Origin: Patescibacteria group bacterium
GTDB taxonomy: Bacteria; Patescibacteriota; Patescibacteriia; Patescibacteriales; WJLG01
DNA length: 64,000 nt
NCBI GenBank assembly: GCA_041652555.1
Contig: JBAZHE010000002.1
Coordinates: 13,409-77,408, forward strand
Reading direction: 5' to 3'
This document shows, one piece after another, positions 1 through 52,355 of this stretch. The translations under genes and the position numbers were made by a program. Every line of letters starts with the position of its first letter. The stretch's first letter is position 1. Below the pieces are notes generated by a model, which saw only the letters and a list, made by a program, of their open reading frames with translations, was not told the origin of the DNA and made no database searches.

Positions 1-2100
1 TTCGCCTATCCGGCGATTGCTCTAGCACTTGTTTTATCCGGATTTTTTTCTTATTTTTTTTCTCTTCATCCTGAGTTAAGTTTTTTTGGTAATTATGGCC
101 GTCGGCAGGGTTTTATTCAGTTGATTTTTTATGTGGTATTTTTTCTTTTGCTTTTGATGTTTTTGCAGAATAAAAATAAGGCAAGCAAATTGGTTTGGAC
201 AACTGTTTTATCTTCTGTTATCCCGGTGTTTTACGGTTTAGCACAATTTTTTCGTCTGGATCCGTTGCATTGGGCTGAAAATATGGGACGGGTTTTTTCT
301 ACCATGGGACAGCCGAATTTTTTTGGGCATTATTTAATCTTAATTATTCCATTAACAGTTCTGGCCACTATTTTTTTAACGCGCCGTTTTTGGCCGAGAT
401 TTTTTTTATCGTCATTATTTATTTTTCAATCAATTTGTCTTTATAGTACCTTTAGCCGAGCGGCTTGGGTGGCCTTAGCTGGAGAAATTTTTTTTCTGAC
501 TGTTTTTTTTCTTTGGCTCAAAAAAGGAAAAAGATTTTTGTTTTTATCTTTATTGGCGGTTTTGTTTGTTTTTGCTGGTATAGTTTGGCTGGTCGGCAAT
601 CCGCCGGGCAAAATGTCTATTAACAATAGTTTTTTTTCCAGAATTGAAAGTATTTTTGACGCAAATTCCGCTTCTAACCGCGCCCGTCTTAATTATTGGT
701 CAGCGGCGATGGCGGCTTTTTCCGAGGCTCCTTTGAGGACAAAGATTTTTGGCTATGGTCCAGATGTTTTGTCGGACGTTTTTGCTTCGCGGTATCAGTC
801 AGAGTGGGCATTGGTGGAAAGAATTTATTCCTGGCCGGATCGTGCTCATAATTTTATTTTAGATTCTCTTCTGCATTTCGGTTTATTCGGCCTTTGGGTT
901 AGCATTTTAGCGGTGATTTATTTTTTAAAAGAAATAATTTATTTTTTTCGCCATTCCGCGCGAGATAGTTATTATTATTTTGTAGTCTTTTGTTTAACGG
1001 CTTTGTTTGGCTATTTTATTAATAACTTGTTTAGTTTTTCCTTGACTATTCTGAATGTTTTTTTTGTTGTTATCCTGTCTTCAGCCATAGCAATTATTGC
1101 CAAGCGAGAGGAGCGGATAATCTCTTTGCCACTATCTTTTTTTTCGCGTCTTGCTTTATTGTTGGTTGCGTTTGTTTTGGGAATAATTTTTATTTTTATT
1201 CGGTCTGTAAAAGTGATGGAGGCTGATCATCAGTATTTATTGGCAAAAAAAGCTGTTTCATCTGGTGAGTGCCAGCCACTTTCGTCCTTAAAACAAGCTT
1301 TTATTTTAAACACGCGAGAAAATGCATATCGTGAAGAATATCTTCACCAAGGACTTCTTTGTCTAAAAAATATTTCCGCTGAAGAAGAAAAAAACGCGCT
1401 TGAAAGCAGTTTATTTGAAGTTTTTAGGCAAATACCGGAAAAAGAAAGAAATAGCTTTGCGCTTTTAGATGAGGTTAATTTGTTGTCAGTTGTAGCTTTG
1501 AGCGATAAAAAATTTGCTTCAATGGCGGAAAAAAAGTTTCAAGATTTTTTAAAAGTTTATCCGCATCTCGGCCAAATTTATATCAATTGGGCTGATTATA
1601 AAATACAAGCTGGGGATTCTGAGGGCGCAATCAATATTATTCTAGAAGGTTTGGAAAAAGCTTTTCCTAAAAATTGGGATGATGAAAAAATTTTCTCTGA
1701 ACGGAGGCAAGATATAGCTCGTGAAATTATTTATTTCTATGAACTTTTAGGCAATTCATATCAAGCGACCGGTCAATTAGATAAAGCCTTAGATTATTAT
1801 AGTCGGATTATAAAGCTCAACCCTCTATATCTGCCGATTTATAAAAAAATTGCTGATGTTTATTATTTAAAAAAGGACTACAATATGGCTTTGTGGTATA
1901 ATAAAAGGGGCTATTCTCTAAATCCGAGTGATTATGTCTGGCCATTAGCTATTGGACTAGTTTATCAAGAAAAAGGTGACCAAGAAGCAGCTAGGGTTTA
2001 TTTGGAAGAATCTTTGAATTTAGCGCCGGAAGACAAAAGAGGTGAAATAGAAAATATTATTGCCAGTCTGAACAATACCGGCAAAAAAAACAATGAATAA
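1..2100 (+). CDS. O-antigen ligase (Wzy_C/WaaL-like) family polytopic membrane protein with C-terminal TPR repeats; 5' partial, the reading frame is open back to position 1
   Basis: No in-frame stop from nt 1 to the annotated start at 121. Many TM helices. Wzy_C-like segment (FSRAAWVALAG ... NRARLNYW ... GYGPD). C-terminal approx 250 aa has TPR-like tandem helices (YYSRIIKLNP, ALWYNKRGYSLNP, ARVYLEESLNLAP). Confidence 0.6.
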   Translation, partial: FAYPAIALALVLSGFFSYFFSLHPELSFFGNYGRRQGFIQLIFYVVFFLLLLMFLQNKNKASKLVWTTVLSSVIPVFYGLAQFFRLDPLHWAENMGRVFSTMGQPNFFGHYLILIIPLTVLATIFLTRRFWPRFFLSSLFIFQSICLYSTFSRAAWVALAGEIFFLTVFFLWLKKGKRFLFLSLLAVLFVFAGIVWLVGNPPGKMSINNSFFSRIESIFDANSASNRARLNYWSAAMAAFSEAPLRTKIFGYGPDVLSDVFASRYQSEWALVERIYSWPDRAHNFILDSLLHFGLFGLWVSILAVIYFLKEIIYFFRHSARDSYYYFVVFCLTALFGYFINNLFSFSLTILNVFFVVILSSAIAIIAKREERIISLPLSFFSRLALLLVAFVLGIIFIFIRSVKVMEADHQYLLAKKAVSSGECQPLSSLKQAFILNTRENAYREEYLHQGLLCLKNISAEEEKNALESSLFEVFRQIPEKERNSFALLDEVNLLSVVALSDKKFASMAEKKFQDFLKVYPHLGQIYINWADYKIQAGDSEGAINIILEGLEKAFPKNWDDEKIFSERRQDIAREIIYFYELLGNSYQATGQLDKALDYYSRIIKLNPLYLPIYKKIADVYYLKKDYNMALWYNKRGYSLNPSDYVWPLAIGLVYQEKGDQEAARVYLEESLNLAPEDKRGEIENIIASLNNTGKKNNE

Positions 2101-3223
2101 GCGTTTTTTAAAAGATTTAGTTTTAGATTTAGTTTATTTTTTTGGACTTGTTTTTTTATTATTCGCTCCGAAAAAAAATAACGTGCGACAAGTTGATGAA
2201 AGCAAGCCATGGCTTTTTATATCTTGTTTTAAAATAGGCGATTCTTTGTTTTTAACGTCGGTTTATAGGGAGATAAAAAATAAATTTCCCGGCGTGCGCC
2301 TTTGGGTTTTAGTGAATAATTCCGGCGCGCGCGACATTTTAAAAAATAATCCGCACATAGAAAAGGTGATTTTTGTTAAAAATTATCTGTCTGGGTTTAT
2401 TTTTTTATTTAAAAATATAACAAGAGATTTCGGCGCTATTTTTGATTATTCAGCCATTTTTTATTGGAGTTTGATTGCTAAAAGTTTGCGGCATAAATTT
2501 TATCTTATCAGGGAAAATCAGCAGAAAATTGGACATTTTTTCTTTAAAAATTTTGAAAAATTCGGTTGGAGTCGCCGTTATGAAAATCAATATATAGTTA
2601 ATTATTATTTATCGCTAGTTGATTTTTTGGGGATTAAAACCTCTAACAATAGAATGAATATTTTTTTTAGTGCGGATGAAGCCATGAGATTTAAGGATAA
2701 ATTTTCTTTTTTGCCTGAAAAATACGCGATTTTCCATCTTAGCGCTGGCGAACCGAAAAATATCTGGCCGTATTGGGCGGAATTCGCTCCAGTCTTTAAC
2801 AAAGAGTTTGATTTGCCAGTGGTGTTTACTGGGTCTGACGAAAACAACAAAAATAATTCATTTTTAACTAAAAGATTGGTTGGTGGAGATAATAATTTTT
2901 TCTTTTTGGCGGGGAAAACTTCTCTCCGCGAAGCCTTATGGCTCGTGAGTCGCGCCGAATTTTATATTGGCGGCGATACAGGCATAACGCATGCCGCGAT
3001 TTCTTTTGATAAAAAAGTTGTTATGATTTTTGGCCGAGCGAGTGATAAGCTGTATTGTCCCGATAAAAAAAACATTGTTTGCCTTAAGCCAAAAACCCTT
3101 TGTTATCCATGCTATGCTTATGATAATGTTTACTATAAATGCCCAAATCCATCTGTGCCAGATTGTACAAAATCTATTACCCAGGAAGATATTTTAGCGG
3201 TTTCGCGTAAAATTTATGGATAA
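2093..3223 (+). CDS. glycosyltransferase family 9 (ADP-heptose:LPS heptosyltransferase-like)
   Basis: GT9 C-terminal signature LAGKTSLREALWLVSRAEFYIGGDTGITHAA. Overlaps the upstream gene by 8 nt (ATGAATAA). Cys-rich C-terminal tail. Confidence 0.65.
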   Translation: MNKRFLKDLVLDLVYFFGLVFLLFAPKKNNVRQVDESKPWLFISCFKIGDSLFLTSVYREIKNKFPGVRLWVLVNNSGARDILKNNPHIEKVIFVKNYLSGFIFLFKNITRDFGAIFDYSAIFYWSLIAKSLRHKFYLIRENQQKIGHFFFKNFEKFGWSRRYENQYIVNYYLSLVDFLGIKTSNNRMNIFFSADEAMRFKDKFSFLPEKYAIFHLSAGEPKNIWPYWAEFAPVFNKEFDLPVVFTGSDENNKNNSFLTKRLVGGDNNFFFLAGKTSLREALWLVSRAEFYIGGDTGITHAAISFDKKVVMIFGRASDKLYCPDKKNIVCLKPKTLCYPCYAYDNVYYKCPNPSVPDCTKSITQEDILAVSRKIYG

Positions 3224-4133: not shown

Positions 4134-4928
4134 ATGTTTTATTTTTTTATATTTTTCTCTTTGGCTATTGGCGCTATTATTGGCAGTTTTACTAATTGTT
4201 TTATTTGGCGCCTACACGAAGATGAAAGTTTGTTGGGGCGGTCATATTGCCCGCTTTGCCGTAAAAAAATTCACTGGTATGACAATATCCCGGTGATAAG
4301 CTTTTTTCTTTTACGCGGGCGTTGTCGCTCTTGTGGGGAAAAAATTTCTTGGCAATATCCATTAGTAGAAGTCGCTATGTCTTTGCTTTTTGCCACCGCG
4401 GCTTTTTTTGCAATTTCCGGAAAAATTTACAGCGGTTATCTTTTTTTTGATGCGACAACCGCCTTACGCTTGACGCGGGATTGGTTCTTTATTTTTATTT
4501 TATTAGTTGTTTTTGTTTACGATTTGCGCTGGTATTTAATTCCAGATAAGGTTGTTTTGCCGGCGATTGTTTTTATTTTTATTGTTAATTTGTTTCTAGG
4601 TTTTTCTTGGTGGTTGCTTCTACTTTGCGGTTTGGTTGGCGCTGGTTTTTTTGCCATACAGTTTATTGTTTCACGTGGTCGCTGGATGGGCGGCGGAGAT
4701 ATTCGCCTAGGCTTGTTTTTTGGTGTTTTTTTTGGTCGTTTTAATACGTTATTCCTAGCTATTTTATTGGCTTATTTTATCGGTTCGGTCATTAGCTTGC
4801 TTTTAATAGCTATTGGACGTAAAAAATGGGGTTCTCAGGTTCCTTTAGGGGTTTTTTTGGCTCCTGGGGCGATTTTAGCTCTGTTTTTTGGGGAAAAAAT
4901 TATTTCTTGGTATTTTGGCTTAATTTGA
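4134..4928 (+). CDS. pilD: type IV prepilin leader peptidase (A24 family)
   Basis: N-terminal zinc-binding CPLCRKKIHWYDNIPVISFFLLRGRCRSCGEKISWQYPLVE motif, then polytopic membrane peptidase region (DLRWYLIPD, GGGDIRLG). Confidence 0.75.
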   Translation: MFYFFIFFSLAIGAIIGSFTNCFIWRLHEDESLLGRSYCPLCRKKIHWYDNIPVISFFLLRGRCRSCGEKISWQYPLVEVAMSLLFATAAFFAISGKIYSGYLFFDATTALRLTRDWFFIFILLVVFVYDLRWYLIPDKVVLPAIVFIFIVNLFLGFSWWLLLLCGLVGAGFFAIQFIVSRGRWMGGGDIRLGLFFGVFFGRFNTLFLAILLAYFIGSVISLLLIAIGRKKWGSQVPLGVFLAPGAILALFFGEKIISWYFGLI

Positions 4929-6367: not shown

Positions 6368-7564
6368 ATGGCTGAAGTAAAACCAATAATTGAGACTTTC
6401 GCGAAAATTAAAGTCGTCGGCATCGGCGGTGGCGGCAATAGCGCCATCCAGAGAATGGTGGAAAGGGGGATTAGGGGTGTTGATTTTGTCGCTATTAATA
6501 CAGACGTCCAGGCTTTGCATTATAATAAAGCCGGAGAAAAATTGCACATCGGTCGCTCTGTTACCCGCGGCTTGGGTGCCGGCATGAATCCGGATTTAGG
6601 TAAGCAGGCGGCGGAAGAATCGCAAAATGAGATTCGTGACATCTTAAAGGGCTCGGATATGGTTTTTATTACTTGCGGTTTAGGCGGCGGTACAGGAACA
6701 GGTGCGGCGCCAGTGGTGGCGGAAATCGCTCGCGATTTGGGTGCTTTAACTGTAGCAATTATTACTAAGCCGTTTTCTTTTGAAGGTGGCCAAAGAAAGG
6801 CGATTGCTGAGAGGGGTTTTGCTGAGTTGGCTGATAAAGTGGACACTATCATTACCGTTAATAATGATAAGCTTTTACAGAATATAGATAAAAAAACATC
6901 TTTACTTGACGCTTTTGCTTCGGCTGATGAGGTTTTGCGCCAAGGCGTGCAAGGGATTGCGGAAATTATTACCATTCCGGGCATAATTAATGTTGATTTT
7001 GCCGATGTCAAAGCGGTAATGTCTCAGGCTGGTTCAGCTTTGATGGGTATTGGTACAGCGACTGGAGAAAATCGGGCGGTGGATGCGGCGAAAATGGCAA
7101 TAAATTCTTCTTTATTAGACATGTCTATTGACGGCGCGCGCGGCATTGTGTTTACTATTACCGGCGGGCCTGGATTGGGTATGGCTGAAGTGAATGAGGC
7201 GGCTAAAGTAATTACGGCTTCAGCTGACCAGGATGCTAAAATAATTTTTGGCGCCGTGATTGACGATAAATTAAAAGACGAGATAAAAGTAACTGTCGTG
7301 GCAACCGGTTTTGACAGTGATAATTCTAACCCCAAAGTTCACCAGGCGCATGGTTATACGCCAAACAGCTTCATAGAGCAGACTAGTAAAGAAAATAAAT
7401 CAACCATTAAGGCTTCGTCCTGGTTTGGGAAAAAAGATGAACCCGGTCCGTTAAAAAAAGCGAAAATGCCTTCTTTGAAAATGATGCAAGAAGAATCTGC
7501 CGATGAAACAGAAGACGAAGGAGAGCTTGGCATCCCGGCGTTTATTCGGAAAAAAATGCAATAA
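6368..7564 (+). CDS. ftsZ: cell division GTPase FtsZ
   Basis: Tubulin signature GGGTGTGAAP; VVGIGGGGNSAIQRM N-terminus. Preceded by AAAGGAG RBS. Confidence 0.95.
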   Translation: MAEVKPIIETFAKIKVVGIGGGGNSAIQRMVERGIRGVDFVAINTDVQALHYNKAGEKLHIGRSVTRGLGAGMNPDLGKQAAEESQNEIRDILKGSDMVFITCGLGGGTGTGAAPVVAEIARDLGALTVAIITKPFSFEGGQRKAIAERGFAELADKVDTIITVNNDKLLQNIDKKTSLLDAFASADEVLRQGVQGIAEIITIPGIINVDFADVKAVMSQAGSALMGIGTATGENRAVDAAKMAINSSLLDMSIDGARGIVFTITGGPGLGMAEVNEAAKVITASADQDAKIIFGAVIDDKLKDEIKVTVVATGFDSDNSNPKVHQAHGYTPNSFIEQTSKENKSTIKASSWFGKKDEPGPLKKAKMPSLKMMQEESADETEDEGELGIPAFIRKKMQ

Positions 7565-7571
7565 ATTTTAT

Positions 7572-7612
7572 AAAAAAAATCAGTCCCGAGCAATCGGGAC
7601 TGATTTTTTTTA
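7572..7612. terminator. bidirectional rho-independent terminator between ftsZ (+) and the aldolase gene (-)
   Basis: 9-bp stem CAGTCCCGA/TCGGGACTG with GCAA tetraloop, flanked by an A-run upstream and T-run downstream. Confidence 0.75.
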
Positions 7613-7621
7613 TAAAATTTA

Positions 7622-8611
7622 CTAAAAAGAGAATGAGAGAAATGATTTTAGGGAAATTTTTTCTTTGGGCAAAGTTGGTTTTTTAATAGTTAATTTCTTT
7701 TTTCCTTGGTATATTTTATAGGCTTCTTCGGCGGAATAATCATAAAGCGTGACTGCGGAGATGGCATTGGCCATGCGGACAGCTTCGTTTAATGGCCGTT
7801 GATAAATATTCCGTCCGACCGCTACGCCACGTGTGCCGGAAATATGGATTTGATGATGCAATTGTTCCAGGAATTTTTTCTCAGGCATTTTTTTCCCGCC
7901 GATGCAAATCACGCCTGATCGTCCGGCCGCTGTTGTTACTTCGCGGAATTTTTTGGCAGTTTCTATTGTTGGCTGGCTGTAAGGGTAGCTAATTTTTACG
8001 AAATCAGTGTCCAAGCAGACCGCCACACCAGCGCCACCGGCCAGTAAGTGAATATCTTCTTCATTTTTAACTGCTTTACCGCGAGCGTAAATCCAAATTA
8101 CCGCGAGCATTCCTTCTTGATGAGCTTTGTAGATGACGCGCGCCGCCTGCCCGAAGGACTCTGATTCAAAAGTACTGCCGATATAAACAGTATAACCAAC
8201 TCCGACAATATTTAAACCGGACGTTTTTTTAAAATTAACTATGTCTTCCATAGCTAGCCAGCGGTTAGAAAAAGGATCACGTTCTTCTTTTTTGATTAAA
8301 TTAGTTTTAGAATTAATTTTTACTATTAAAGGCGTGTTTCTACAAAGATCATTGGCATAACGTGAAAGCAACCCGGCTTGTGCGGCCAAAACGCCGATTT
8401 CCGCCCCGCAGGCAATATTAAAATAATGCTTTGGATCGGCGACCTCCGCCGGTATTCCCGGACCGACAAAATCATCGTTTAAATGCTCAACTTTTTGGTC
8501 GCAGGCAAACATCATTAGTCGGCCAGTGCCACGAGTGGCAACCTTCCAATTTTTTAAATATTCTTTCCTTTTTTCCGGCGGAACAGAAGCCGGGACAAAA
8601 ACTTTTTCCAT
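7622..8611 (-). CDS. class I fructose-bisphosphate aldolase (DhnA/FbaB-type, DeoC/LacD aldolase superfamily)
   Basis: TIM-barrel aldolase pattern (GRLMMFACDQKVEH ... VKISYP with candidate Schiff-base Lys ... GGKK). Adjacent to gpmI (glycolysis). Confidence 0.55.
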   Translation of the reverse strand: MEKVFVPASVPPEKRKEYLKNWKVATRGTGRLMMFACDQKVEHLNDDFVGPGIPAEVADPKHYFNIACGAEIGVLAAQAGLLSRYANDLCRNTPLIVKINSKTNLIKKEERDPFSNRWLAMEDIVNFKKTSGLNIVGVGYTVYIGSTFESESFGQAARVIYKAHQEGMLAVIWIYARGKAVKNEEDIHLLAGGAGVAVCLDTDFVKISYPYSQPTIETAKKFREVTTAAGRSGVICIGGKKMPEKKFLEQLHHQIHISGTRGVAVGRNIYQRPLNEAVRMANAISAVTLYDYSAEEAYKIYQGKKKLTIKKPTLPKEKISLKSFLSFSF

Positions 8612-8672
8612 AGCATTTTTTATGTTAGAATGAAGATGATTACTAATATATTATATCATATAATAAAATATT

Positions 8673-10250
8673 ATGCTAAAACCAGTAATTTTAGTTATTC
8701 TTGACGGTTGGGGGGAATGGGATGTGGAAAAAGGCAATCCTTTGAAAAAAGCGTTATTGCCGACAATCGATCGCTTAAATAAATATTATCCCAAAACTTT
8801 ATTGCAGGCTTCAGGCCTGGCAGTTGGTTTGCCTTGGGGGGTGCGAGGGAATTCCGAAGTCGGACATCAAACAATCGGCACCGGCCAGATTATTTTTCAG
8901 TATTTGCCAGCGATTTCCGCCGCTATCGGCGACGGTTCATTTTTTAACAGCCCCGCGCTTTTAGAAGCCTTTGATCGGACAATGCGCCATTCTTCTAATT
9001 TACATTTTTTTGGTTTGCTCTCTGATGGCTCCGTGCATTCTCATATTGATCATTTATTTGCTTTACTGGAAGCGGCTAAGAGAAATAAAATTAAAGAAGT
9101 TTTTATTCATGTTGTCACTGATGGTCGCGATACTCATCCGCAAAGCGCTAAGAAATATATAGTTTCTTTGCAAGCAAAAATGGCCGAGCTAGGCTTGGGA
9201 AAAATTGCCACACTTTGTGGAAGATACTATGCGATGGATAGGAATAATAATTGGGAAAGAACCGAAGAATCTTTTTCAGTTATGACTGCCGGAAGTGGTC
9301 TGAAAGAAAAAAATCCACTTTTAGCAGTTGATTTTCAGTATGAGAAAAATATTTTTGATGAATATTTAAAGCCGGTTAATTTAATTGACGAAAATGATCA
9401 GCCGATAGGATTGATTAAAGACAACGACACGATTATTTGTTTTAATTATCGCGAGGACCGTTCGCGTCAAATGGCTAGAGCCTTTATTCTTCCGGATTTT
9501 AAGGAATTTGTGGCGCCTCGGCCAAAAAATATAAAATATATTTGTTTTACTGAATATGAAGAAGGCTTGACAAAAGACGTTGTTTTTCGTCCGGATAAAA
9601 TAACCGTCCGTTTGGGAGAAATTTTATCTAAAAAGGGGCTAAAACAATTGCGCGTTGCGGAAACGGAAAAATACGCCCATGTTACCTACTTTTTTAATGG
9701 TGGCCTGGAAAAGCCCTACGCTGGCGAAGATCATTTACTTATTCCTTCAAAAAAAGTTTCCACTTATGCCACGGTGCCGGAAATGAGTGCTGAAGAAATA
9801 ACCGAAAAGATTTTGGAGGCGGTTGATCAAAATAAATATGATTTTATTTTAGTGAATTATGCTAATTCTGATATGGTCGGGCACACTGGTAATTTTGTTT
9901 CAGCTGTAAAAGCAGTGGAGACTGTTGACTCCTGTTTGTCGCGTTTGATTGATAAAGTTATTTCTTTGCGCGGCAGTCTGTTGATAACCGCTGATCATGG
10001 TAATGTGGAAGAGTTGGTTAATATCCATACCGGCGATACTGATACTCAGCATTCCAAAAATCCCGTTCCTTGTTGGTATGTAACGCTGGATAATAATATT
10101 GAATATAAAGAGGCGCTAGAGCCTTCAATCGATGGCATGCTAGTTGATTTGGCACCGACAATTTTAGATATTTTAAAAATTTCTAAACCGAAAGATATGG
10201 TTGGCCGAAGCCTTTTACCGCTTTTCGGTGAAGTTAAAAAAGAAGAATAA
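8673..10250 (+). CDS. gpmI: 2,3-bisphosphoglycerate-independent phosphoglycerate mutase
   Basis: VILVILDGWGE N-terminus, metal-binding ADHGN and SDMVGHTG motifs. Confidence 0.9.
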   Translation: MLKPVILVILDGWGEWDVEKGNPLKKALLPTIDRLNKYYPKTLLQASGLAVGLPWGVRGNSEVGHQTIGTGQIIFQYLPAISAAIGDGSFFNSPALLEAFDRTMRHSSNLHFFGLLSDGSVHSHIDHLFALLEAAKRNKIKEVFIHVVTDGRDTHPQSAKKYIVSLQAKMAELGLGKIATLCGRYYAMDRNNNWERTEESFSVMTAGSGLKEKNPLLAVDFQYEKNIFDEYLKPVNLIDENDQPIGLIKDNDTIICFNYREDRSRQMARAFILPDFKEFVAPRPKNIKYICFTEYEEGLTKDVVFRPDKITVRLGEILSKKGLKQLRVAETEKYAHVTYFFNGGLEKPYAGEDHLLIPSKKVSTYATVPEMSAEEITEKILEAVDQNKYDFILVNYANSDMVGHTGNFVSAVKAVETVDSCLSRLIDKVISLRGSLLITADHGNVEELVNIHTGDTDTQHSKNPVPCWYVTLDNNIEYKEALEPSIDGMLVDLAPTILDILKISKPKDMVGRSLLPLFGEVKKEE

Positions 10251-10569: not shown

Positions 10570-10598
10570 TTGACAGATTTTTTTAATGTGTTAATATA
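10570..10598 (+). promoter_or_regulatory. candidate promoter for rplJ-rplL (TTGACA-16-TAATAT); a long leader follows
   Basis: TTGACA at 10570-10575, TAATAT about 16 nt downstream. The 160-nt leader before rplJ is a candidate L10(L12)4 autoregulatory leader (inference). Confidence 0.35.
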
Positions 10599-10728
10599 AG
10601 GTTATTCAATAAAAGCCATAGACAGTAGGCAAAAAATTAAGTCCTGCCGAGGCAAAAAAAACATTTTGTTTTTTATTTGCGTCTGTGGTTAAAAGCCAGA
10701 GATTTTTTTATTAATAAATTTTAATTGT

Positions 10729-10749
10729 CAATTGAAGATTGATAATTGA
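10729..10749 (+). repeat. copy 1 of 21-nt intergenic repeat CAATTGAAGATTGATAATTGA
   Basis: Identical 21-mer also at 44710-44730. Near-identical copies at 38472-38496 (reverse) and 44613-44632. Confidence 0.7.
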
Positions 10750-10763
10750 AAATTAAATAGTTT

Positions 10764-11291
10764 ATGCCTAAAACAAGAGCGCAAAAAAAGATAATTTTGG
10801 ACGAATTATCCCAAAAAATAAAAGACGCCAAGTCTATTATTTTTACTAAATTTGAAAAATTACCGGTTAAAGAAAATGAAGAGTTGCGCCGTCGCATCAA
10901 GGCTGAAGGCGGGGAGTATGTCGTTACCAAAAAGACTTTGTTAGATTTGACTTTAAAGAGTAACTCCTTGGCAGTTGATATGGATAGTCTAGATGGGAAA
11001 GTTGCCGCTGTTTTTGGTTATCAGGATGAAATTGCTCCAGCAAAAGTTATTGATACTTTTCGCAAAGGGTTGGAAGAAGAAAAGATTTTTTTCTTGGGTG
11101 GAATTTTGGATGGAAAATTTATTCCAGCCGAAATGGTGGAAAGTTTAGCCAAGCTTCCTTCCAAGCAGGAGCTTTTAGCTAGATTAGTTGGCTCTTTAAA
11201 TTCTCCTGTGTCGGGTTTTGTCAATGTTTTGGCTGGAAATTTGCGCGGTTTAGTTTGTTGCCTCAAGGCTATTAGTGAGAAGAAAGCTTAA
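10764..11291 (+). CDS. rplJ: 50S ribosomal protein L10
   Basis: MPKTRAQKKIILDELSQKIKDAKSIIFTKF typical L10 N-terminus. Followed by rplL. Confidence 0.9.
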   Translation: MPKTRAQKKIILDELSQKIKDAKSIIFTKFEKLPVKENEELRRRIKAEGGEYVVTKKTLLDLTLKSNSLAVDMDSLDGKVAAVFGYQDEIAPAKVIDTFRKGLEEEKIFFLGGILDGKFIPAEMVESLAKLPSKQELLARLVGSLNSPVSGFVNVLAGNLRGLVCCLKAISEKKA

Positions 11292-16289: not shown

Positions 16290-16781
16290 ATGGGATTAAT
16301 AAAAGTTTTAGGTCTTGATTGGAAGGTTTTATTAGCACAATTTATAAATTTTGCTGTTTTACTTTTTGTGCTTTTCAAATTTGCCTATAAGCCGATGTTT
16401 AAGTTTTTGGATGATAGAAAAGATAAAATAGAAAAGGGGATAGAGAATGCCGCCCGCGCCGAAGATCGCCTTAAAGAAATTACCGAAAAGGAATTAGAAG
16501 TTTTGAAAAAAGCCAAGGTTGAAGCTGTGGAAATATTAAATAAAGCGCAACTTGAAGCAGAAGAAATTCGTAAGCGAGAATTAACAAAAACTCGCGAAGA
16601 AATAGGTAAAATAATCAATCAAGAAAAGGAAAATATGCGCCAAGAAAAAGCCGAAGTTCTGCGCGACATAAAAAGCGAAGTTTCAAAATTGGTTATATCG
16701 TCAGTGGAGAAAGTTTTAGAAGAAAAAATTGATAGCAAAAAAGATGAGGAGATAATTAAGAAAATGATAAAGGATAGATGA
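16290..16781 (+). CDS. atpF: F0F1 ATP synthase subunit b
   Basis: N-terminal TM helix then long charged coiled coil. Operon position. Confidence 0.85.
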   Translation: MGLIKVLGLDWKVLLAQFINFAVLLFVLFKFAYKPMFKFLDDRKDKIEKGIENAARAEDRLKEITEKELEVLKKAKVEAVEILNKAQLEAEEIRKRELTKTREEIGKIINQEKENMRQEKAEVLRDIKSEVSKLVISSVEKVLEEKIDSKKDEEIIKKMIKDR

Positions 16782-16803
16782 TAAATGATAAATTATTAGA
16801 ATT

Positions 16804-17202
16804 ATGAAGATAGCCCCTAAACAATATGCCACTGCTTTGTTGGAGTCTTTGGATGAAAATTCTGGTAAAAAAAAAGAGGTTGCGGCTCGGTTTGCCGAAT
16901 CTCTAATTGATGATGGCCAAATTTCTAAATTAAAAGAAATAATGGAGATTTTTGATGATTTGTGGAATAAGAAAAATGACTTAGTTAAGGCTGAAATAAT
17001 TTCTGCTAATTCTTTAAGTAAAGAAATGCAAAAATCTTTAAAAGATTTATTAACAAAAATTAGCGGAGGAAATAAAGTTGAAGTTACAGAAAAAATAGAT
17101 AAACACCTATTAGGCGGAACAATTTTGCGCTACGGCGACAGAATCCTTGATTTGAGTTTAAAAAATAAAATAGAAAAATTAAAAGAAGATTTAAATAGTT
17201 AG
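16804..17202 (+). CDS. atpH: F0F1 ATP synthase subunit delta (short form)
   Basis: C-terminal LLGGTILRYGDRILDLSLKNKIEKL OSCP-like motif. Operon position. Confidence 0.75.
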   Translation: MKIAPKQYATALLESLDENSGKKKEVAARFAESLIDDGQISKLKEIMEIFDDLWNKKNDLVKAEIISANSLSKEMQKSLKDLLTKISGGNKVEVTEKIDKHLLGGTILRYGDRILDLSLKNKIEKLKEDLNS

Positions 17203-17231: not shown

Positions 17232-18758
17232 ATGTCTAATACTAAGGATTTCGTGATTGAAGAGATAAAAAAGAAGATTGGGGAATTCCAGTCTAATCCA
17301 GAAGAAAAAAATTTCGGCCGTGTTCGTTCGGTTGGCGACGGTATTGCTCGCTTGTCCGGACTATCTGGCGCAATGATGTCAGAGATGTTGGAATTCAAAA
17401 CCTCTGACGGCTCTCGTTATGGTGTAGCTTTGAATTTAGAAGAAGACGGTGTTGGTGCTATTATTCTTGATGATTATCAAGCAATTAAAGAGGGTGATGA
17501 AGTTGTTTCCACTGGAAAAATTTTGGAAGTTCCTGTTTCTGATAAAATCGTTGGCCGTGTCTTGAATCCTTTAGGTCGCCCGATTGATGGTCGCGAAGCA
17601 GTTGTTGCTGACAAATACTATCCAGTAGAAAAAGTTGCTCCCGGTGTTATTACTCGTGAATCAGTTAAAAAGCCTTTACAAACCGGTATCAAGGCTATTG
17701 ATGCGATGATTCCAATTGGTCGTGGACAACGTGAATTGATTATTGGTGACCGCCAGATTGGTAAAACCGCTATTGCCATTGATGCTATTATTAATCAAAA
17801 AGGTCAGAATGTTAAATGTATTTATGTCGCCATTGGTCAAAAAGAATCCAAAATCGCCGGTATTGTTGCTAAATTAAAAGAAGCTGGAGCAATGGATTAT
17901 ACAACCCTAGTTGTAGCTGGTGCCTCTGATCCAGCCTCATTATTGTATATTGCTCCATTTGCCGGTTGTGCTATGGCTGAATATTTCCTAGATAAAGGCG
18001 AAGATGTTTTAATTGTTTATGATGATTTAACTAAACACGCCGCCGCTTACCGTGAAGTTTCTTTATTACTCCGAAGACCACCAGGTCGCGAAGCTTATCC
18101 TGGTGATGTATTCTACCTTCATTCTCGTTTATTGGAGCGCGCTTGTAAATTAAACAAAGATTTTGGTGGTGGCTCTATTACCGCTTTGCCAATTATTGAA
18201 ACCCAATCCGGCGACGTGTCTGCCTATATTCCAACCAATGTTATTTCTATTACTGACGGCCAGATTTATCTTGAACCAGATTTATTCTATCAAGGTAATC
18301 GCCCAGCCGTTAATGCCGGTATTTCAGTTTCTCGCGTAGGTTCTTCCGCGCAAATTAAAGCCATGAAAAAAGTTGCCGGAAAAATGCGCCTAGAAGTCGC
18401 CCAATATCGCGAACTAGCCGCTTTTGCTCAATTCGGCTCAGACCTTGATGAAGAAACAAGGAAAAAATTAGAACGCGGACAACGCATTGTAGAAATTCTA
18501 AAGCAAGGTCAGTATCAACCGATGCCAGTAGAGGAGCAGGTCGCAATATTTTTCGCCGTCACCAATGGCCTAATGGATAATGTCCCAGTAGAAAAAATAA
18601 CCGAATTTGAAAAGAAAGTTTTAGAAAATATCAGAAACACATCATTAGATGTTTTAAAAGAAATAAAAAAATCCGGCGAACTGTCGGACGAAACACAAGC
18701 TAAGTTGAAGAAAGTTGTAGAAGATTTTAAAGATACGTTAGAATATGTTTCAAAGTAA
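17232..18758 (+). CDS. atpA: F0F1 ATP synthase subunit alpha
   Basis: P-loop GDRQIGKT and strong full-length alpha-subunit similarity. Confidence 0.95.
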
Positions 18759-21235: not shown

Positions 21236-21661
21236 ATGGATAAATTTATTAAATTTGAAATAGTTACTCCGGAGCAGACGATTCTAAAAGAAGAAATTCT
21301 TGAGGCTACTATTCCGACGGCAGAAGGGGAGATAACTATTTTGCCAAAACATTCACCACTGATTTCTTTTTTGAAGCCAGGAGTTTTGTCGTTAAAGAAA
21401 AAAGATGGGTCGCAAGATGTAGTTTTTGTGGCTGGTGGATTTTTGGAAGTTTTAAAAAACAAAGCGGTTATCTTGGCTGATACGGCTGAGCGGGCGGAAA
21501 ATATTGATTTAGCTCAAGCTGAAGAGGCGAGAGCGAGAGCGGAAAAAAATATTAAGGATTTACGCCACGAGGATGCTGAACAGTTTGCTGCCATCAGTGC
21601 TCAATTGGAACATGAATTGGCCAAGACTCGCGCCGTAAAAAAATGGCGACATCTTAAATAA
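21236..21661 (+). CDS. atpC: F0F1 ATP synthase subunit epsilon
   Basis: Beta-sandwich N-terminal domain plus C-terminal helical hairpin. Operon position. Confidence 0.9.
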   Translation: MDKFIKFEIVTPEQTILKEEILEATIPTAEGEITILPKHSPLISFLKPGVLSLKKKDGSQDVVFVAGGFLEVLKNKAVILADTAERAENIDLAQAEEARARAEKNIKDLRHEDAEQFAAISAQLEHELAKTRAVKKWRHLK

Positions 21662-21672
21662 AAAACAACGGA

Positions 21673-21780
21673 GGTGCCATAGTCCCGATAGGGCTGTGGC
21701 ACCTAAAATGCAATCGTTATTTTTGAAATAATGTTTTGCAAATAGAGTGCCACAGTCCTGAGTACAGGAACTATGGCACC
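21673..21780. repeat. two related palindromic hairpins (GGTGCCAYAGTCC ... GGACTRTGGCACC) about 75 bp apart, downstream of atpC
   Basis: Hairpin 1 at 21673-21703 and hairpin 2 at 21747-21780 share nearly identical arms. Not followed by T-runs. Confidence 0.5.
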
Positions 21781-21810
21781 CCCAACGAGACAAAAATGTT
21801 TAATATTAAA

Positions 21811-21845
21811 CAAAAAATAGGCTCTTAAAAGCCTATTTTTTGTTT
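21811..21845 (+). terminator. rho-independent terminator of the atp operon
   Basis: ATAGGC-TCTTAAAA-GCCTAT stem-loop followed by TTTTTTGTTTTT. Confidence 0.7.
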
Positions 21846-21925
21846 TTAGACCCAGCCATTGACAAAAAATTTAAAATATGCTATCTTAATATGATTGCTA
21901 CAATATTATTATCCATTATTTTTTT

Positions 21926-41983: not shown

Positions 41984-42015
41984 AAAATCAGCCCAGATTA
42001 ATCAGGGCTGATTTT
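41984..42015. terminator. bidirectional terminator between rplU (+) and recR (-)
   Basis: AAAATCAGCCC ... GGGCTGATTTT 11-bp stem with flanking A-run and T-run. Confidence 0.7.
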
Positions 42016-42018
42016 ATT

Positions 42019-44636: not shown

Positions 44637-44709
44637 GCGCCCATAGCTCAGCTGGTAGAGCAACTCCCTTTTAAGGAGATGGTCACAGGTTCGAATCCTG
44701 TTGGGCGCA
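44637..44709 (+). tRNA. tRNA-Lys (anticodon TTT)
   Basis: Cloverleaf: acceptor GCGCCCA/TGGGCGC, D-arm GCTCAGCTGGTAGAGC, anticodon loop CTTTTAA, T-arm with GGTTCGAATCC. Confidence 0.85.
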
Positions 44710-44730
44710 CAATTGAAGATTGATAATTGA
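44710..44730 (+). repeat. copy 2 of the 21-nt intergenic repeat, between the two tRNAs
   Basis: CAATTGAAGATTGATAATTGA, identical to 10729-10749. Confidence 0.7.
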
Positions 44731-44740
44731 TAGTTTTTTT

Positions 44741-44813
44741 GCCACCCTAGCTCAGCTGGTAGAGCAACAGTTTTGTAAACTGTGGGTCGTCGGTTCGAAC
44801 CCGACGGGTGGCT
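44741..44813 (+). tRNA. tRNA-Thr (anticodon TGT)
   Basis: Acceptor GCCACCC/GGGTGGC, anticodon stem ACAGT/ACTGT with loop TTTGTAA, T-arm GGTTCGAACCC. Confidence 0.85.
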
Positions 44814-48951: not shown

Positions 48952-49506
48952 TTATTTGGAATATTTTTTTACTAAAGTATCAACTTGAGCCAGGAATTCT
49001 TCCATTGTAGTGTTGTTGGTTATTTTTTCGTCGGCAGCAGCGATAGTTTCTACTATTTGTTCTTCGGTGCCAGCCTCTGAGTCTTTGGCAAATTCTTCAA
49101 AACTTTTTTCTGCATCTCCGGCGTTTTCATTGCGAGCGGTTAAGCGGTCGTAACGAATTTTGGTATCAGCATCAACTGCTATTAGGGTGAAATTTTTTAA
49201 ACGTTTCCAAGCTTCTACTTCGTCTTTATGGCGAATACCTTCAACAACAATTATTTTTTCTTCGGAATTTAAGACGCGCCAAATCAAGACGTCGGTCATA
49301 GCATAACGTCCAAACATCTCGCGTATTTTAGTACCGAGAACGGTTAAATTTTTTCTAGATTTTTCTATGTCGGCAGTATCTAATAGTTCACGTAAAAGAG
49401 AGGAGTATTTATAGGTTCTCGCTCCGTGTTTTTCGCTTAAATATTTAGCTACTATTCCTTTTCCGGAAGCCATTTCTCCAGTGACGCCAAAAATGATTTT
49501 GTCCAT
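48952..49506 (-). CDS. P-loop nucleoside/nucleotide kinase (dNMP-kinase-like / dephospho-CoA-kinase-like)
   Basis: Walker A FGVTGEMASGKG and VEGIRHKDE lid-like segment. Last gene of the minus-strand dCMP deaminase-dcd-thyX operon. Confidence 0.5.
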   Translation of the reverse strand: MDKIIFGVTGEMASGKGIVAKYLSEKHGARTYKYSSLLRELLDTADIEKSRKNLTVLGTKIREMFGRYAMTDVLIWRVLNSEEKIIVVEGIRHKDEVEAWKRLKNFTLIAVDADTKIRYDRLTARNENAGDAEKSFEEFAKDSEAGTEEQIVETIAAADEKITNNTTMEEFLAQVDTLVKKYSK

Positions 49507-49534: not shown

Positions 49535-51130
49535 TTATTTATTAAGTTCTTTCTCGAATTTTTCTTCTAAGTTATTTTTCATATCTTCATGAAATTGTTC
49601 GTCGTAATTTTTTACTGCTTTTTTAATTATCCAACAGGAATTTTTTTCTGGGCAGAAACCGGTATTGAAACATTTTGGTTCAATATGCCAATTAAGCCAA
49701 TCCAAATCCATTGTTTTTAGCTTGTGGTTTATTTTTACAGCTTCGTCGCGGGTGACGCGGCGCAATTGTTCATCGGCGGTAGTGCAGAGACGCAAAGGGA
49801 AATAGCCGGCGATTAAATTGTAAAAGTTAACATCTTGCAAAACATAAATTCTAACGGCACGAGGGATGACAAAGATAGCATCATGCTCGGGAACTCCTAG
49901 GGAGATTAATTTTTTATAAGCATCCAAGGATTTTAAAACTGTTTGGGTGTATTTTTTTAAATTTGTTTGGTCGTTGGCGATTTTAGTTGGAATATTTAAT
50001 GTAGTATCAAGATTTTTTATTTGTTCCTCGCTTAAAGTATTATTAGAAATATTTTTGGATAAATCTTGCCAAACCGAACAAGCTTGTTCGGTTGCGTAAT
50101 ACATAGAATCAACCGTCATTGGCATGGTGCGATGGCGTTTTCTTTCTCCCCAAACGCGCCAAGACAAACGAGAAATCATTTTTATATCAAGAGCGTTTTG
50201 GTAATCGCGGGCAATTTCGGCGCGCTTATCAATGGCTGTTGCCCAATTTTTTATCATTGTTTCTTTGTCGGCGTAAATTGCTTCTAAATCTTTTCGTAAA
50301 GAATCCATTTTTTCTTTTAAGGATTTTGTGGCTAGAGAATTGATTGAGACTATTTCACTTTCAGTACTGTTTAATTTTTCTTGAGCTATTTCTCGAGCTA
50401 GATTGACAGTCTTTGGGTTTTTAAAAATATTTGGGTAAGGATAGGTTGTTCGTGGAGCTAGGGAGCGAGATTTGAAAAGTGAGTCAACACCCATTTTTTT
50501 AAATTCCGTCTCTATGGCTTCAATAAAGAATCCTATTTCTTCAGGCATCCAAGCTTTTTCTCGGTCATATTCTCTTTTTAAGGTATTAAAAGACTCAATA
50601 CTATAAGAAATAATGCCGGTACCGTAAACGCCGTATTGTAGGATTTTTGAAGCTTGGTCTTTTTCTATTCCAACCTCTAAAAGTTCGTGAAAAGTGTCTA
50701 GTATTTTTTCAGAAGCTTCTTTATATATTTCTAGAGCTTCTTTGTTTTTGGCAATAGTGGTTGGGTAAACAATATCTTCATAAGTTGAATCAGTGCGACG
50801 TCCAGAGGCCATAAGGGAAGAGGAAAAAACCATACCAGTTAGGGCTGAGTCAATCATTTTTGAGGCTTCATAAGAAAATGAAAAAACTGGTGTTGTCGCC
50901 ATTGAAGCGTGGCCTTTTAAAGAAGAGTTTTTGAGAATGGTTTTAACTTTTTTGGTCATGTCTTGGCCTTTTTCTTCAGCTTCTTTCTTGAGATTTTCAG
51001 CTGATTTTCCTTTAAACGTCAAAAGGGCACCTAGAGCGCAAATGCTTTCTGGATCAAGTCCGCCGTTTTCATCTGTTAGCACCGGGTTGATGCCAAGGAA
51101 ATTTATTTTGAAATCTTTGGTAGATAACAT
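49535..51130 (-). CDS. thyX: flavin-dependent thymidylate synthase ThyX, long form (531 aa) with a roughly 230-aa insertion
   Basis: Exact ThyX motif RHR-X7-S (RHRTMPMTVDS). N-terminal GHASMATTPVFSF aligns with the ThyX HETPFEH region. C-terminal VPEHDAIFVIPRAVRIYV ... LR aligns with the ThyX helical core. Confidence 0.6.
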   Translation of the reverse strand: MLSTKDFKINFLGINPVLTDENGGLDPESICALGALLTFKGKSAENLKKEAEEKGQDMTKKVKTILKNSSLKGHASMATTPVFSFSYEASKMIDSALTGMVFSSSLMASGRRTDSTYEDIVYPTTIAKNKEALEIYKEASEKILDTFHELLEVGIEKDQASKILQYGVYGTGIISYSIESFNTLKREYDREKAWMPEEIGFFIEAIETEFKKMGVDSLFKSRSLAPRTTYPYPNIFKNPKTVNLAREIAQEKLNSTESEIVSINSLATKSLKEKMDSLRKDLEAIYADKETMIKNWATAIDKRAEIARDYQNALDIKMISRLSWRVWGERKRHRTMPMTVDSMYYATEQACSVWQDLSKNISNNTLSEEQIKNLDTTLNIPTKIANDQTNLKKYTQTVLKSLDAYKKLISLGVPEHDAIFVIPRAVRIYVLQDVNFYNLIAGYFPLRLCTTADEQLRRVTRDEAVKINHKLKTMDLDWLNWHIEPKCFNTGFCPEKNSCWIIKKAVKNYDEQFHEDMKNNLEEKFEKELNK

Positions 51131-51133
51131 AAT

Positions 51134-51194
51134 AATGCTAAATGCTAAATGATGAATGCTAAATAAAATAATTTAGCATTTAGCATTTAGCATT
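51134..51194. repeat. near-perfect 61-nt palindrome of heptad repeats, (AATGCTA)n ... (TAGCATT)n, filling the dcd-thyX spacer
   Basis: AATGCTAAATGCTAAATGATGAATGCTAAAT-AAAATA-ATTTAGCATTTAGCATTTAGCATT. Ends 3 nt before the thyX start codon. Confidence 0.55.
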
Positions 51195-51201
51195 GTTAAT
51201 T

Positions 51202-51810
51202 TTATATTTGTACCTCTTGTCCTTCGGTGCTTACTCTTCCGCCCATCCATTGGCCACGATATTGATTGCCTTCACCTAGAACTTCTTGAAAGGTGATATG
51301 GGCGATACGAGCACCGAAAGAAATTTTAACATTAGCTGGACCAAGATTGCAAACACCAAAAGTTAATTCTCCAGAATATCCCGGTTGAACAATCCCGTTA
51401 AACATTCCAAGGCCGGAACGAAACATTGTTGTGCGCGGGAAGACAACTCCGGAAAGAGTAGTCGGCAAATTAACTTTTTCCATTGTTTTAACAAGGTAAT
51501 ATTTTCCAGGTTCAAAAATAAAAATATCTTCGTTAACAGAAGTTGGCAAATCCCCTCTAAAAAGAGGGGTGGCGCGGTACTCCGCGACGGGGTGTGTTGT
51601 GTTGGAATTTTGAGCTTTGCCAACTAGTTTAGTGTTTGGTGTTTGTCTTTCTTCTACACCTAAAAATCCATCTCCTTCTAATTCATAAATTTCTCCCAAC
51701 CTCAAATCAAAACCCGCACCTTCGGGATTATTCATTTCCCGTTCGCACAAACCCCCAACCAGATTTATTTCCCTTACTAATTCGTGTAGTTTTTTAATAC
51801 CTAGAATCAT
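51202..51810 (-). CDS. dcd: dCTP deaminase
   Basis: GFDLRLG ... PRTTMFRSGLGMFNGIVQPGYSGELTFGVCN matches Dcd motifs. Contains an in-frame copy of the GC-rich element. Confidence 0.8.
   Translation of the reverse strand: MILGIKKLHELVREINLVGGLCEREMNNPEGAGFDLRLGEIYELEGDGFLGVEERQTPNTKLVGKAQNSNTTHPVAEYRATPLFRGDLPTSVNEDIFIFEPGKYYLVKTMEKVNLPTTLSGVVFPRTTMFRSGLGMFNGIVQPGYSGELTFGVCNLGPANVKISFGARIAHITFQEVLGEGNQYRGQWMGGRVSTEGQEVQI
51552..51603 (+). repeat. GC-rich palindromic element, copy C, lying in frame within dcd (encodes NSNTTHPVAEYRATPLFRGDLP on the opposite strand)
   Basis: CCCCTCTAAAAAGAGGGG-TGGCGCGGTACTCCGCGAC-GGGGTGTGTTGTGTT. The stem GCGCGG/CCGCGC replaces copy B's GTCTCG/CGAGAC (compensatory change). 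Confidence 0.45.
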
Positions 51811-52355
51811 ATTTTTTGGTTGATTTCTTTTCTTTCAAAATCACAATAAATTTTGCCTTCGTATTTGCTTATTTTTATTCCTTTAGCACGGGCCAGCTCT
51901 GTAGCTTCGTCTTCTTCTTCCATCTTTTCGCCGCCGGTTTGAGTTCTTAGATATACATCTTTGTAGATAATTTCTTTTATGCCAGCATTATTCAAGGCCT
52001 TCATGCAGTCATAGCAGGGGAATAAGACAGTATATAGAGTGCTCCCTCTTAGAGACTTTGGGTTAAGACAATTGATAATGCCATTGATTTCGGCATGAGC
52101 GCCACGACAACGTTTCAATTTTTTTGTTACTGGATCGCCCTCAATTTTAGCACAGCCAACTTCGTTGCAATGCAAGTCTCCCTCTGTTGGGCCATTGTAT
52201 CCCATGGAAAGAATTCTTTTGTCTTTATCAACAAAAACACAACCAGTCACTACTACTACGCAAGAAGTTCTCTTAGAGGCTATTACTGCTAGGTTCATAA
52301 ACATTTCATCCCAATTTAATCTTTGTACGCGTGGAGTCTTTTTAGAGTCTGTCAT
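51807..52355 (-). CDS. dCMP deaminase (ComEB-like)
   Basis: Zinc motifs CRGAHAEINGI and PCYDCMKAL. Overlaps the dcd start by 4 nt. Confidence 0.8.
   Translation of the reverse strand: MTDSKKTPRVQRLNWDEMFMNLAVIASKRTSCVVVVTGCVFVDKDKRILSMGYNGPTEGDLHCNEVGCAKIEGDPVTKKLKRCRGAHAEINGIINCLNPKSLRGSTLYTVLFPCYDCMKALNNAGIKEIIYKDVYLRTQTGGEKMEEEDEATELARAKGIKISKYEGKIYCDFERKEINQKI

Follow-up and report, generated by a model that had tools for sequence, protein, structure and literature searches.

What is a nearly perfect inverted array of seven-nucleotide units, or heptads, doing in the spacer between dcd and thyX of a Patescibacteria genome? The stretch in question, referred to here as the window, comprises 64,000 nucleotides (nt) of contig JBAZHE010000002.1 and is AT-rich (36.8% GC). 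Four genes on its minus strand, encoding a dCMP deaminase, a DCD-like protein, the thymidylate synthase ThyX, and a kinase-like protein, form one operon, and the open reading frame (ORF) limits leave a 71-nt spacer (51131-51201) between dcd and thyX. An earlier note on this DNA had viewed the array as a structure designed for thymidylate regulation. Our analysis points elsewhere. It is likely that the spacer element is a recently gained copy of a dispersed, fast-turnover family of heptanucleotide palindromes, similar in behavior to the repetitive extragenic palindromes (REP) and bacterial interspersed mosaic elements (BIME) of enterobacteria, and that it would act on thyX and dcd through a hairpin in their message.

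Structure of the spacer palindrome

Along the plus strand, the locus reads CAT (the thyX start codon, 51128-51130), AAT, four heptads, the 12-nt center AATAAAATAATT (51162-51173), three TAGCATT heptads (51174-51194), GTTAATT, and TTA (the dcd stop codon, 51202-51204). The third unit of the four-heptad arm (AATGCTA AATGCTA AATGATG AATGCTA) is a variant, AATGATG, which reads CATCATT on the other strand. Sequence reading, a repeat search, and Tandem Repeats Finder (TRF) agree that nearly the whole spacer is a palindrome of four AATGCTA-type and three TAGCATT heptads, as the earlier note had described. The repeat search and TRF both found the two heptad arrays (4.4 and 3.4 copies by TRF), and together they give inverted arms of 24 to 28 nt that are 89 to 92% complementary. 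That description needs small corrections: the center is longer than the six nucleotides given there, one of the four heptads is the variant, and the palindrome extends to 51130-51198, taking in the T of the thyX start codon. In the mRNA, the 5' arm brings a UAA stop into each of the three frames, as well as three AUGs. Both boundaries of the spacer can be trusted, because relatives have the same ThyX N terminus, ML(S/T)TKDF, and the same DCD C terminus, ..QI*. An assembly artifact is disfavored, since an identical copy is present in an independent assembly (L001, JGI Ga0376279_0002183), with no copy-number variation between these two assemblies.

Folding of the minus-strand RNA in a 106-nt context gave -30.6 kcal/mol, compared with -11.8 ± 2.9 kcal/mol for 200 dinucleotide shuffles (z = -6.48), none of which (0/200) folded as well; the folding-energy check suggested at the outset thus speaks for the structure. 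The predicted stem has 24 bp, is closed by a 6-nt loop, and is interrupted on its 3' side by a 7-nt bulge (UCAUCAU). This stem begins 7 nt past the dcd UAA, and its last pair lies 3 nt ahead of the thyX AUG, which bears out the earlier proposal of a stem of about 24 bp ending at that distance. Within the four-heptad arm, the upper stem takes up 51156-51164, the bulge 51149-51155, and the lower stem 51134-51148. The core hairpin alone has a predicted energy of -26.7 kcal/mol, and a bulge-free slipped register -22.2 kcal/mol. About 6 of the 24 pairs are GC (~25%). Among all 70-nt segments across the 64 kb, the site falls in the extreme tail (-29.5 versus a mean of -9.6, standard deviation 4.8); the segments that score above it include a classical GC-cored terminator (7561-7630) and an unexplained structured spacer (21661-21810). 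Taken together, the palindrome is confirmed as real and far beyond chance.

The earlier note had also suggested that the hairpin sequesters the ribosome-binding region. In the predicted ensemble, positions -17 to -4 are indeed practically always paired (<3% unpaired), and the thyX AUG is only 12 to 18% unpaired, since UUAUGUU and the dcd stop region join in an outer 7-bp helix. However, there is no Shine-Dalgarno (SD) sequence to sequester. About 50 of the 61 window genes have no SD-like motif upstream and ~10 have any; a strong GAGGAGG occurs only ahead of the genes at 22773 and 24799, and most starts have AU-rich upstream regions. No complementarity of the bulge or the heptads to the anti-SD sequence as generally known from the 16S 3' end was apparent.

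The orthologous spacer in relatives

The dcd-thyX gene order is kept in six relatives, with ThyX proteins 47 to 82% identical to that of the window. Their spacers measure 55 nt (L002, ThyX 82%) and 23 nt (L003, 82%), both unrelated in sequence to the window spacer, 15 nt (L005, 74%), 31 nt (L007, 73%), 86 nt with a different, AT-only heptad palindrome (L008, 69%), and essentially 0 nt (L004, 47%). The spacer of the closest relative, P0002 (ThyX 83%), is 85 nt. No relative closer than these was found among 5.8 billion protein clusters. A search for the same palindrome ahead of thyX in related genomes, proposed in the earlier note as a check, went against the idea of conservation: the element was absent from the dcd-thyX spacer in all six relatives (6/6) with readable DNA that were compared by sequence. 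Because of this absence, the element appears to have been gained after a split at ~17% ThyX divergence, and because it was gained after that split it is not an ancestral control of thymidylate synthesis. It may have arrived whole, or it may have been built in place by slippage and inverted duplication or by copying from another copy, in either case after separation from the relatives with 82 to 83% ThyX identity.

The L008 spacer carries its own palindrome at 1415-1500 (AATTTTCAAT..ATTGAAAATT), made of TTTAAAA-type heptads and unrelated in sequence to the window element, so the dcd-thyX spacer has been colonized more than once. L002, L003, and L008/L009 are Patescibacteria-like but are labeled "uncultured Gammaproteobacteria" or "Candidatus Nanoarchaeia," probably through binning or taxonomy errors in the source records. 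ThyX homologs of ~530 amino acids (aa) number in the hundreds, and the source-named ones are mostly from Patescibacteria.

Copies at unrelated operon junctions

Exact matches to (AATGCTA)3 occurred in at least 120 metagenome contigs, which span all GC contents, a figure that is a sample and a lower bound and not a count, along with 14 viral contigs; most were plain heptanucleotide arrays. Contig L110 (Ga0224523_1015791), from a sequencing project other than that of the window, carries the whole palindrome. Its arms are 100% identical to the window arms, the CATCATT heptad included; the loop alone differs, and pairing is retained. This copy lies between a T-box-like leader with a terminator and the ATG of aspS. 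The leader match (45.8 bits, E = 2e-8) is under the gathering score, but the GGUGGUACCGCG box is present. L110 and four further contigs (L144, L145, L147, and L148) are Patescibacteria according to the source names of AspRS homologs; they differ from one another, with AspRS sequences 81 to 90% identical to that of L110.

A census with the 28-mer TAGCATTCATCATTTAGCATTTAGCATT, allowing one mismatch, located five places beyond the window (Table 1), and the window, L110, L144, and L148 have the 28-mer in identical form. At least six copies are thus known in four genomes, with two to three per 22 kb in L144 and L148, and a family profile run over 1.03 Mb of sequence scored strongly solely at the family loci listed. 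The family composite appears to be (AATGCTA)3, a variable loop, and TAGCATT-CATCATT-TAGCATT-TAGCATT, placed at unrelated intra-operon junctions in several Patescibacteria genomes. Gaps to the downstream ATG are 2, 2, 2, 3, 8, and 8 nt, and most of those spacers are entirely filled. The viral contigs gave no match to the 21-mer with the variant heptad and none to the gapped palindrome pattern; their 14 (AATGCTA)3 matches are plain arrays, except that L136 has a different, high-GC type of element.

Turnover at orthologous sites is fast. Upstream of aspS, the element is full in L110 (3 units), half-decayed in L144 (2), and absent in L145 (0). Between ruvX and recO, L148 has an intact copy and L145 a decayed one, and other heptad palindromes occupy the site in L144 and L147. 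The window and L144 stretches have no genes in common.

One copy has reached into coding sequence. At 9296-9319 of L148, the 5' arm of the element overlaps the 3' end of ruvX and supplies its last residues and stop codon (..DKMLNAKC*), from which it follows that heptad repeats can remodel gene ends; it is also a warning for annotation. The repeats contain stop codons in all six frames.

Heptad arrays in other spacers

The family seems to be part of a broader tendency of these genomes to pack same-strand spacers with heptad arrays, direct as well as inverted. The dominant tandem-repeat period of L144, L147, and L148 is 7 nt, ~95% of period-7 arrays lie outside coding sequence, and period-7 or period-14 arrays occur in 12/25, 14/26, and 14/26, respectively, of same-strand spacers of at least 20 nt. 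Many arrays are inverted pairs of other heptads (AATGTAT/ATACATT, AATTTTG/CAAAATT, ATACGAA/TTCGTAT, TATGTGA, and others), and they occupy spacers even in the cluster of ribosomal-protein genes, secY, adk, and map. The window genome is much poorer in such arrays (6 of 32 spacers), and with the thyX locus set aside its spacers show a modest excess at lags 7 and 14 (z = 2.6 and 3.1).

Likely role of the element and alternatives

We picture the element as co-transcribed within the dCMP deaminase-dcd-thyX-kinase mRNA, where the bulged 24-bp hairpin would form. An open start region probably matters in this organism because it initiates mostly without an SD sequence, and for that reason the hairpin should lower independent 30S loading on thyX. 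To be translated, thyX would then need ribosomes that come in from dcd, or an enzyme such as RNase III that cuts the duplex. The hairpin would also protect the dcd transcript at its 3' end, an effect of the kind known from REP/BIME, Correia, and ERIC elements, and it may mark a site of processing or stability. It is not a strong block, given that other copies sit 2 to 8 nt upstream of essential genes. Overall, the element probably lowers or couples thyX translation in this organism, and it has little meaning for thymidylate metabolism, being a recent passenger of the operon.

Several points weigh against the reading of the element as a dispersed family with a hairpin effect. The spacer-sequence comparison took in L002, L003, L004, L005, L007, and L008 and left out P0002. 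The 64-kb window holds a single copy, so that "dispersed" rests, for this genome, on other genomes. No target-site duplication, common insertion motif, or shared flanking direct duplication was found at the window, L110, L144, and L148 copies, and no transposase was seen, with no Y1_Tnp in the Pfam listings of the L144, L147, and L148 genes or among five window genes scanned. Identical 28-mers in four diverged genomes need either strong constraint or recent transfer. Also, every functional step is one that we infer, and selection at the RNA level is not supported by covariation, and a role at the DNA level fits equally well. Across six copies, 95% of cells are paired and 16 of 24 pairs are invariant, and 57 of 500 shuffles reach the observed covariation score; the result is not significant because the stems barely vary between copies.

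A strong hairpin exactly between two cistrons and abutting an AUG could also be a dedicated thyX riboregulator or intercistronic attenuator that sets the dcd:thyX ratio or terminates part of the transcripts, and the distant relative L008 has a palindrome, albeit an unrelated one, in the same spacer. We regard this as highly improbable. Besides not being conserved in the six relatives, the element has copies of its sequence ahead of aspS, ruvX, recO, rpsH, and a POR-family gene elsewhere, which tells equally against a design for thymidylate regulation. No terminator was called at 51131-51201 on either strand. Bona fide terminators of the window have GC cores flanked by runs of at least 7 to 8 T, and the long perfect palindromes at 7571-7612 and 41985-42017, which have a GC core and A-/T-run flanks and lie between convergent genes as bidirectional terminators, served as the internal standard for this genome. 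The element, with its AT-rich stem and a tail, AUUAUGUU, that has no long T-run, is unlike them. An intrinsic terminator or attenuator, as the earlier note had entertained, was rejected on stem composition, tail, and the placement of copies inside operons; at the L110 copy, constitutive termination is excluded because termination between the T-box terminator and the essential aspS would be lethal. A portable promoter is another candidate, in which an extended -10 at the end of the 5' arm would start transcripts in the loop and the four-heptad arm would serve as an unstructured leader of ~30 nt. The coding strand does carry TTAACA-18-TAAATT plus an upstream TG, 5 of 6 copies retain the TGCTAAATT string, the four-heptad arm adjoins the downstream ATG (2 to 8 nt) in 5 of the 6 asymmetric copies, and the 3' arm alone is nearly unstructured (-5.5 kcal/mol). 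Such matches are common in the AT-rich window, however (18 versus 12.8 expected), the copies do not conserve the -35, the orientation count falls short of significance (p ~0.1), and a promoter downstream of the T-box would bypass the riboswitch, all of which makes this quite unlikely.

At the DNA level, contiguous 7-bp units, direct and then inverted, resemble an operator whose successive units are coated by a multimeric protein, ribbon-helix-helix-like or other, as the omega repressor does on pSM19035. The exact retention of the heptad sequence in four genomes is what one expects of a protein recognition site, and the fold is equally good on either strand, which leaves nothing to single out RNA as the functional form. 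Even so, we give an operator little credence. The many heptad families (AATGTAT, AATTTTG, ATACGAA, and others) in neighboring spacers of L144, L147, and L148 would need many regulators, the copies lie inside operons and after a riboswitch and not at promoters, no DNA-binding protein is encoded among the five neighboring genes scanned, and the heptad does not match the omega consensus, WATCACW. It is also conceivable that the element is a neutral by-product of heptad slippage and template switching, tolerated in the spacer with no measurable effect on expression. Fast turnover at orthologous sites fits this account, as do the (AATGCTA)3 arrays in unrelated metagenome contigs and the absence of start-codon bias among heptad arrays across 46 spacers (21 nearer the start and 21 nearer the stop). 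We still hold neutrality to be unlikely, because a duplex of -27 kcal/mol placed 3 nt from an AUG would hardly be without effect in an SD-poor organism, and because independent slippage cannot explain why copies from four genomes have a CATCATT heptad in the same place.

A bolder proposal, about which we are doubtful, is that some Patescibacteria use portable heptad modules 2 to 8 nt ahead of starts as a general intercistronic punctuation recognized by a dedicated factor. The fixed hairpin of 3 + 4 heptads and its sister families, found also ahead of ribosomal-protein and tRNA-synthetase genes, would be such modules. The factor might be a duplex nuclease, RNase III or another, that cuts polycistronic or riboswitch-led RNA down to near-leaderless messages, or it might be a heptad-binding protein. 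If true, this would be an undescribed system of translation initiation or mRNA processing in SD-poor, ultra-small bacteria, and the specificity of the factor would be the reason why diverged genomes keep the 28-mer unchanged.

Comparison with known systems

The REP and BIME elements of enterobacteria are short imperfect palindromes in intra-operon spacers, often past stop codons, that turn over fast; their hairpins stabilize the upstream message and can affect adjacent translation. The window family is likewise made of dispersed intergenic palindromes within transcription units, with quick turnover, and it forms short imperfect palindromes at several non-orthologous intergenic sites. It differs in that its arms are AT-rich tandem heptads, whereas a REP has one GC-rich stem headed by a 5' GTAG. 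The ends of the element lack a GTAG, no RAYT transposase is known for it, and the window holds one copy. Correia/NEMIS elements of Neisseria and ERIC elements of Yersinia and E. coli are co-transcribed miniature inverted repeats whose long hairpins are cut by RNase III or RNase E, which alters the stability and translation of flanking cistrons. Those elements are 100 to 150 bp long, with inverted repeats of unique sequence and target-site duplications, whereas the window element is 61 to 69 bp long, with simple-sequence arms and no visible duplication. A miniature inverted-repeat transposable element of the Correia/ERIC type was rejected accordingly: inverted arms are present, a target-site duplication is not.

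The omega repressor of pSM19035 and other inc18 plasmids binds operators of contiguous direct and inverted 7-bp units as cooperative protein-binding arrays. Its consensus is another one, its sites lie at plasmid promoters and centromere-like sites and not in the interior of a chromosomal operon, and no ribbon-helix-helix partner was present among the five neighbors scanned. The RNase III hairpins of phage T7 early mRNA resemble the window element in being intercistronic hairpins of ~20 to 25 bp that bulge asymmetrically on the 3' side; the sequence of the stem is unrelated, and cleavage of the window element is hypothetical. Rfam 15 gave no match at gathering score at the site in the window, and the L110 element gave only sub-threshold chance matches to microRNAs and snoRNAs.

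Heptanucleotide repeats are the commonest class of long simple-sequence repeats in many prokaryotes (PMC4679880), and the element shares the marks of that class, with at least three tandem units, an intergenic position, and copy number that varies between relatives. A close parallel among them is TAACTGA, arrays of which abut the starts of genes lacking an SD sequence in Beggiatoaceae, Cyanobacteria, and Bacteroidetes (MacGregor 2015, PMC4679880). As in our family, these are tandem 7-nt units with stop codons, intergenic, and scattered across unrelated phyla; they often lie a few nt from the starts of SD-less genes (PMC4679880). The ATG gaps of our copies are short as well, but most of the spacers concerned are filled throughout. 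The TAACTGA arrays comprise 169 direct sets versus one indirect and are predicted to be single-stranded binding sites (PMC4679880), whereas the window family consists of inverted pairs that make a duplex and has a fixed composite of 3 + 4 heptads, with one variant unit, that is copied whole. A heptamer-repeat element in a 5' untranslated region (UTR) of Haemophilus influenzae is reported to be cut by RNase III, and its repeat number to alter UTR structure and processing (PMC12721329). Its stem sequence is unrelated, and the window element is without copy-number variation between its two assemblies. TIGR arrays, Tas-associated guide arrays which occur in Candidate Phyla Radiation bacteria and in phages, have alternating repeats of 8 to 12 nt, 9-nt spacers, and 36-nt units beside a Nop-domain Tas gene (PMC12045711). 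This class was rejected for the window element, which has contiguous 7-mers without spacers, a single palindrome, and no Tas-like neighbor among the genes scanned. In the literature searched, no paper turned up that describes this family or any inverted heptad arrays of Patescibacteria, which is not proof of absence.

Patescibacteria genomes pass for stripped-down and poor in repeats. Yet in one lineage heptad arrays fill about half of the same-strand spacers that were examined, a ribosomal-protein operon included, and a composite 61-nt palindrome is common, base for base, to at least four diverged genomes. The family therefore offers a tractable marker for repeat dynamics and for possible DNA exchange in Patescibacteria, and it is a candidate handle on how SD-less genes are expressed from polycistronic RNA.

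Feature coordinates and further observations

Table 1. Coordinates of the thyX operon, the spacer element, its copies, and other heptad arrays
Sequence	Feature	Position	Strand	Basis or remark
Window	dCMP deaminase gene, operon gene 1	51807-52355	-	ORF list and Pfam; 4-nt overlap with dcd
Window	DCD-like gene (dCTP deaminase/dUTPase superfamily)	51202-51810	-	ORF limits and Pfam DCD/dUTPase match
Window	thyX, 531-aa tandem-duplicated flavin-dependent thymidylate synthase	49535-51130	-	ORF limits and Pfam Thy1, two stretches
Window	AAA_18/AAA_17 nucleotide-kinase-like gene, last of operon	48952-49506	-	28 nt past thyX
Window	Promoter-like site ahead of operon	52433-52405	-	Sequence scan
Window	Terminator of L1 gene, upstream of operon	52520-52503		Terminator-like hairpin by sequence scan
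Window	5' arm of predicted mRNA hairpin, AAUGCUA x3 + AAU	51171-51194	-	Plus strand ATT + TAGCATT x3
Window	Hairpin loop UAUUUU	51165-51170	-	Sole part varying between family copies
Window	28-nt four-heptad arm, mRNA UAGCAUU CAUCAUU UAGCAUU UAGCAUU	51134-51161	-	
Window	Outer-helix strand UUAUGUU, including thyX start codon	51126-51132	-	Predicted 7-bp pairing with AAUAUAA (51202-51208, including dcd stop codon)
Window	Sigma-70-like match inside element, TTAACA-18 nt-TGcTAAATT	51170-51199	-	Consensus match only
Window	Possibly related degenerate array AATGATA AAGGATA GATGATA AATGATA AATTATT	16763-16797	+	Junction before gene at 16804; no inverted partner
Window	Possibly related degenerate array AATGATA AATGGTA GATGATA AATAAAA	39796-39822	+	Just past stop codon at 39800; no inverted partner
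L110	Family copy ahead of aspS	1189-1249		Gap 2 nt
L144	Family copy, map-ruvX spacer	8656-8721		Gap to ruvX 2 nt
L144	Family copy ahead of POR-family gene	18317-18344		Gap to ATG 8 nt; 5' arm decayed
L148	Family copy, ruvX-recO spacer	9298-9363		Gap to recO 2 nt
L148	Family copy, rpsN-rpsH spacer	2120-2196		28-mer is one arm of a 4+4 copy
L144	Decayed copy ahead of aspS	9942		
L145	Decayed copy, ruvX-recO	1089-1143		
L136	High-GC composites	8083-8184 and 8817-8929		Two consecutive spacers
L117	High-GC composite	1268-1358		
L128	High-GC composite	4657-4749		
L098	High-GC composite	8375-8470		
L072	High-GC composite	~690-790		
L010, L018, L020, L033, L035, L038, L040, L046, L073, L079, L086, L097, L103, L113	Mini-ORF locus			

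Two further heptad-type arrays of the window lie beside RNA features. At 10598-10717, an Rfam L10 leader (48.2 bits) is directly followed by AATTGA(C/A) repeats (10723-10754), with a gene start at 10764. Also, AATTGAT heptads (44711-44732, 3.1 copies) fill the 31-nt gap between the tRNA genes at 44637-44709 and 44741-44813.

In contigs of high GC content (0.57 to 0.64), an (AATGCTA)3 array precedes a GC-rich hairpin, after which comes a TTCAGCC/TTTAGCC heptad array, and this composite fills same-strand spacers. It looks like a terminator-type hairpin lengthened by partly complementary heptad arrays. In ~14 contigs, three of them labeled as human-gut metagenome, (AATGCTA)3 occurs at one common locus, inside the mini-ORF ATGAAGAAAACTGAAATGCTAAATGCTAAATGCTAA (MKKTEMLNAKC*), which lies ~45 nt upstream of a gene starting MKQTRLLFIDRDG.

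Two other spacers are worth recording. A 936-nt spacer in L147 (19536-20471) contains repeated tRNA-like segments broken by GC-rich insertions, CCCCGCCCACTGATGGGGCGGGG, and a short ORF-like stretch, and it recalls the group I introns reported in Patescibacteria tRNA genes (PMC13011429). In the window, a 264-nt spacer at 21661-21925 has two strong GC-rich hairpins sharing GTGCCA(T/C)AGTCC..GGCAC motifs (~-35 kcal/mol per 70 nt) and, after them, a separate terminator. This spacer gave no Rfam match and may be an unannotated small RNA or repeat.

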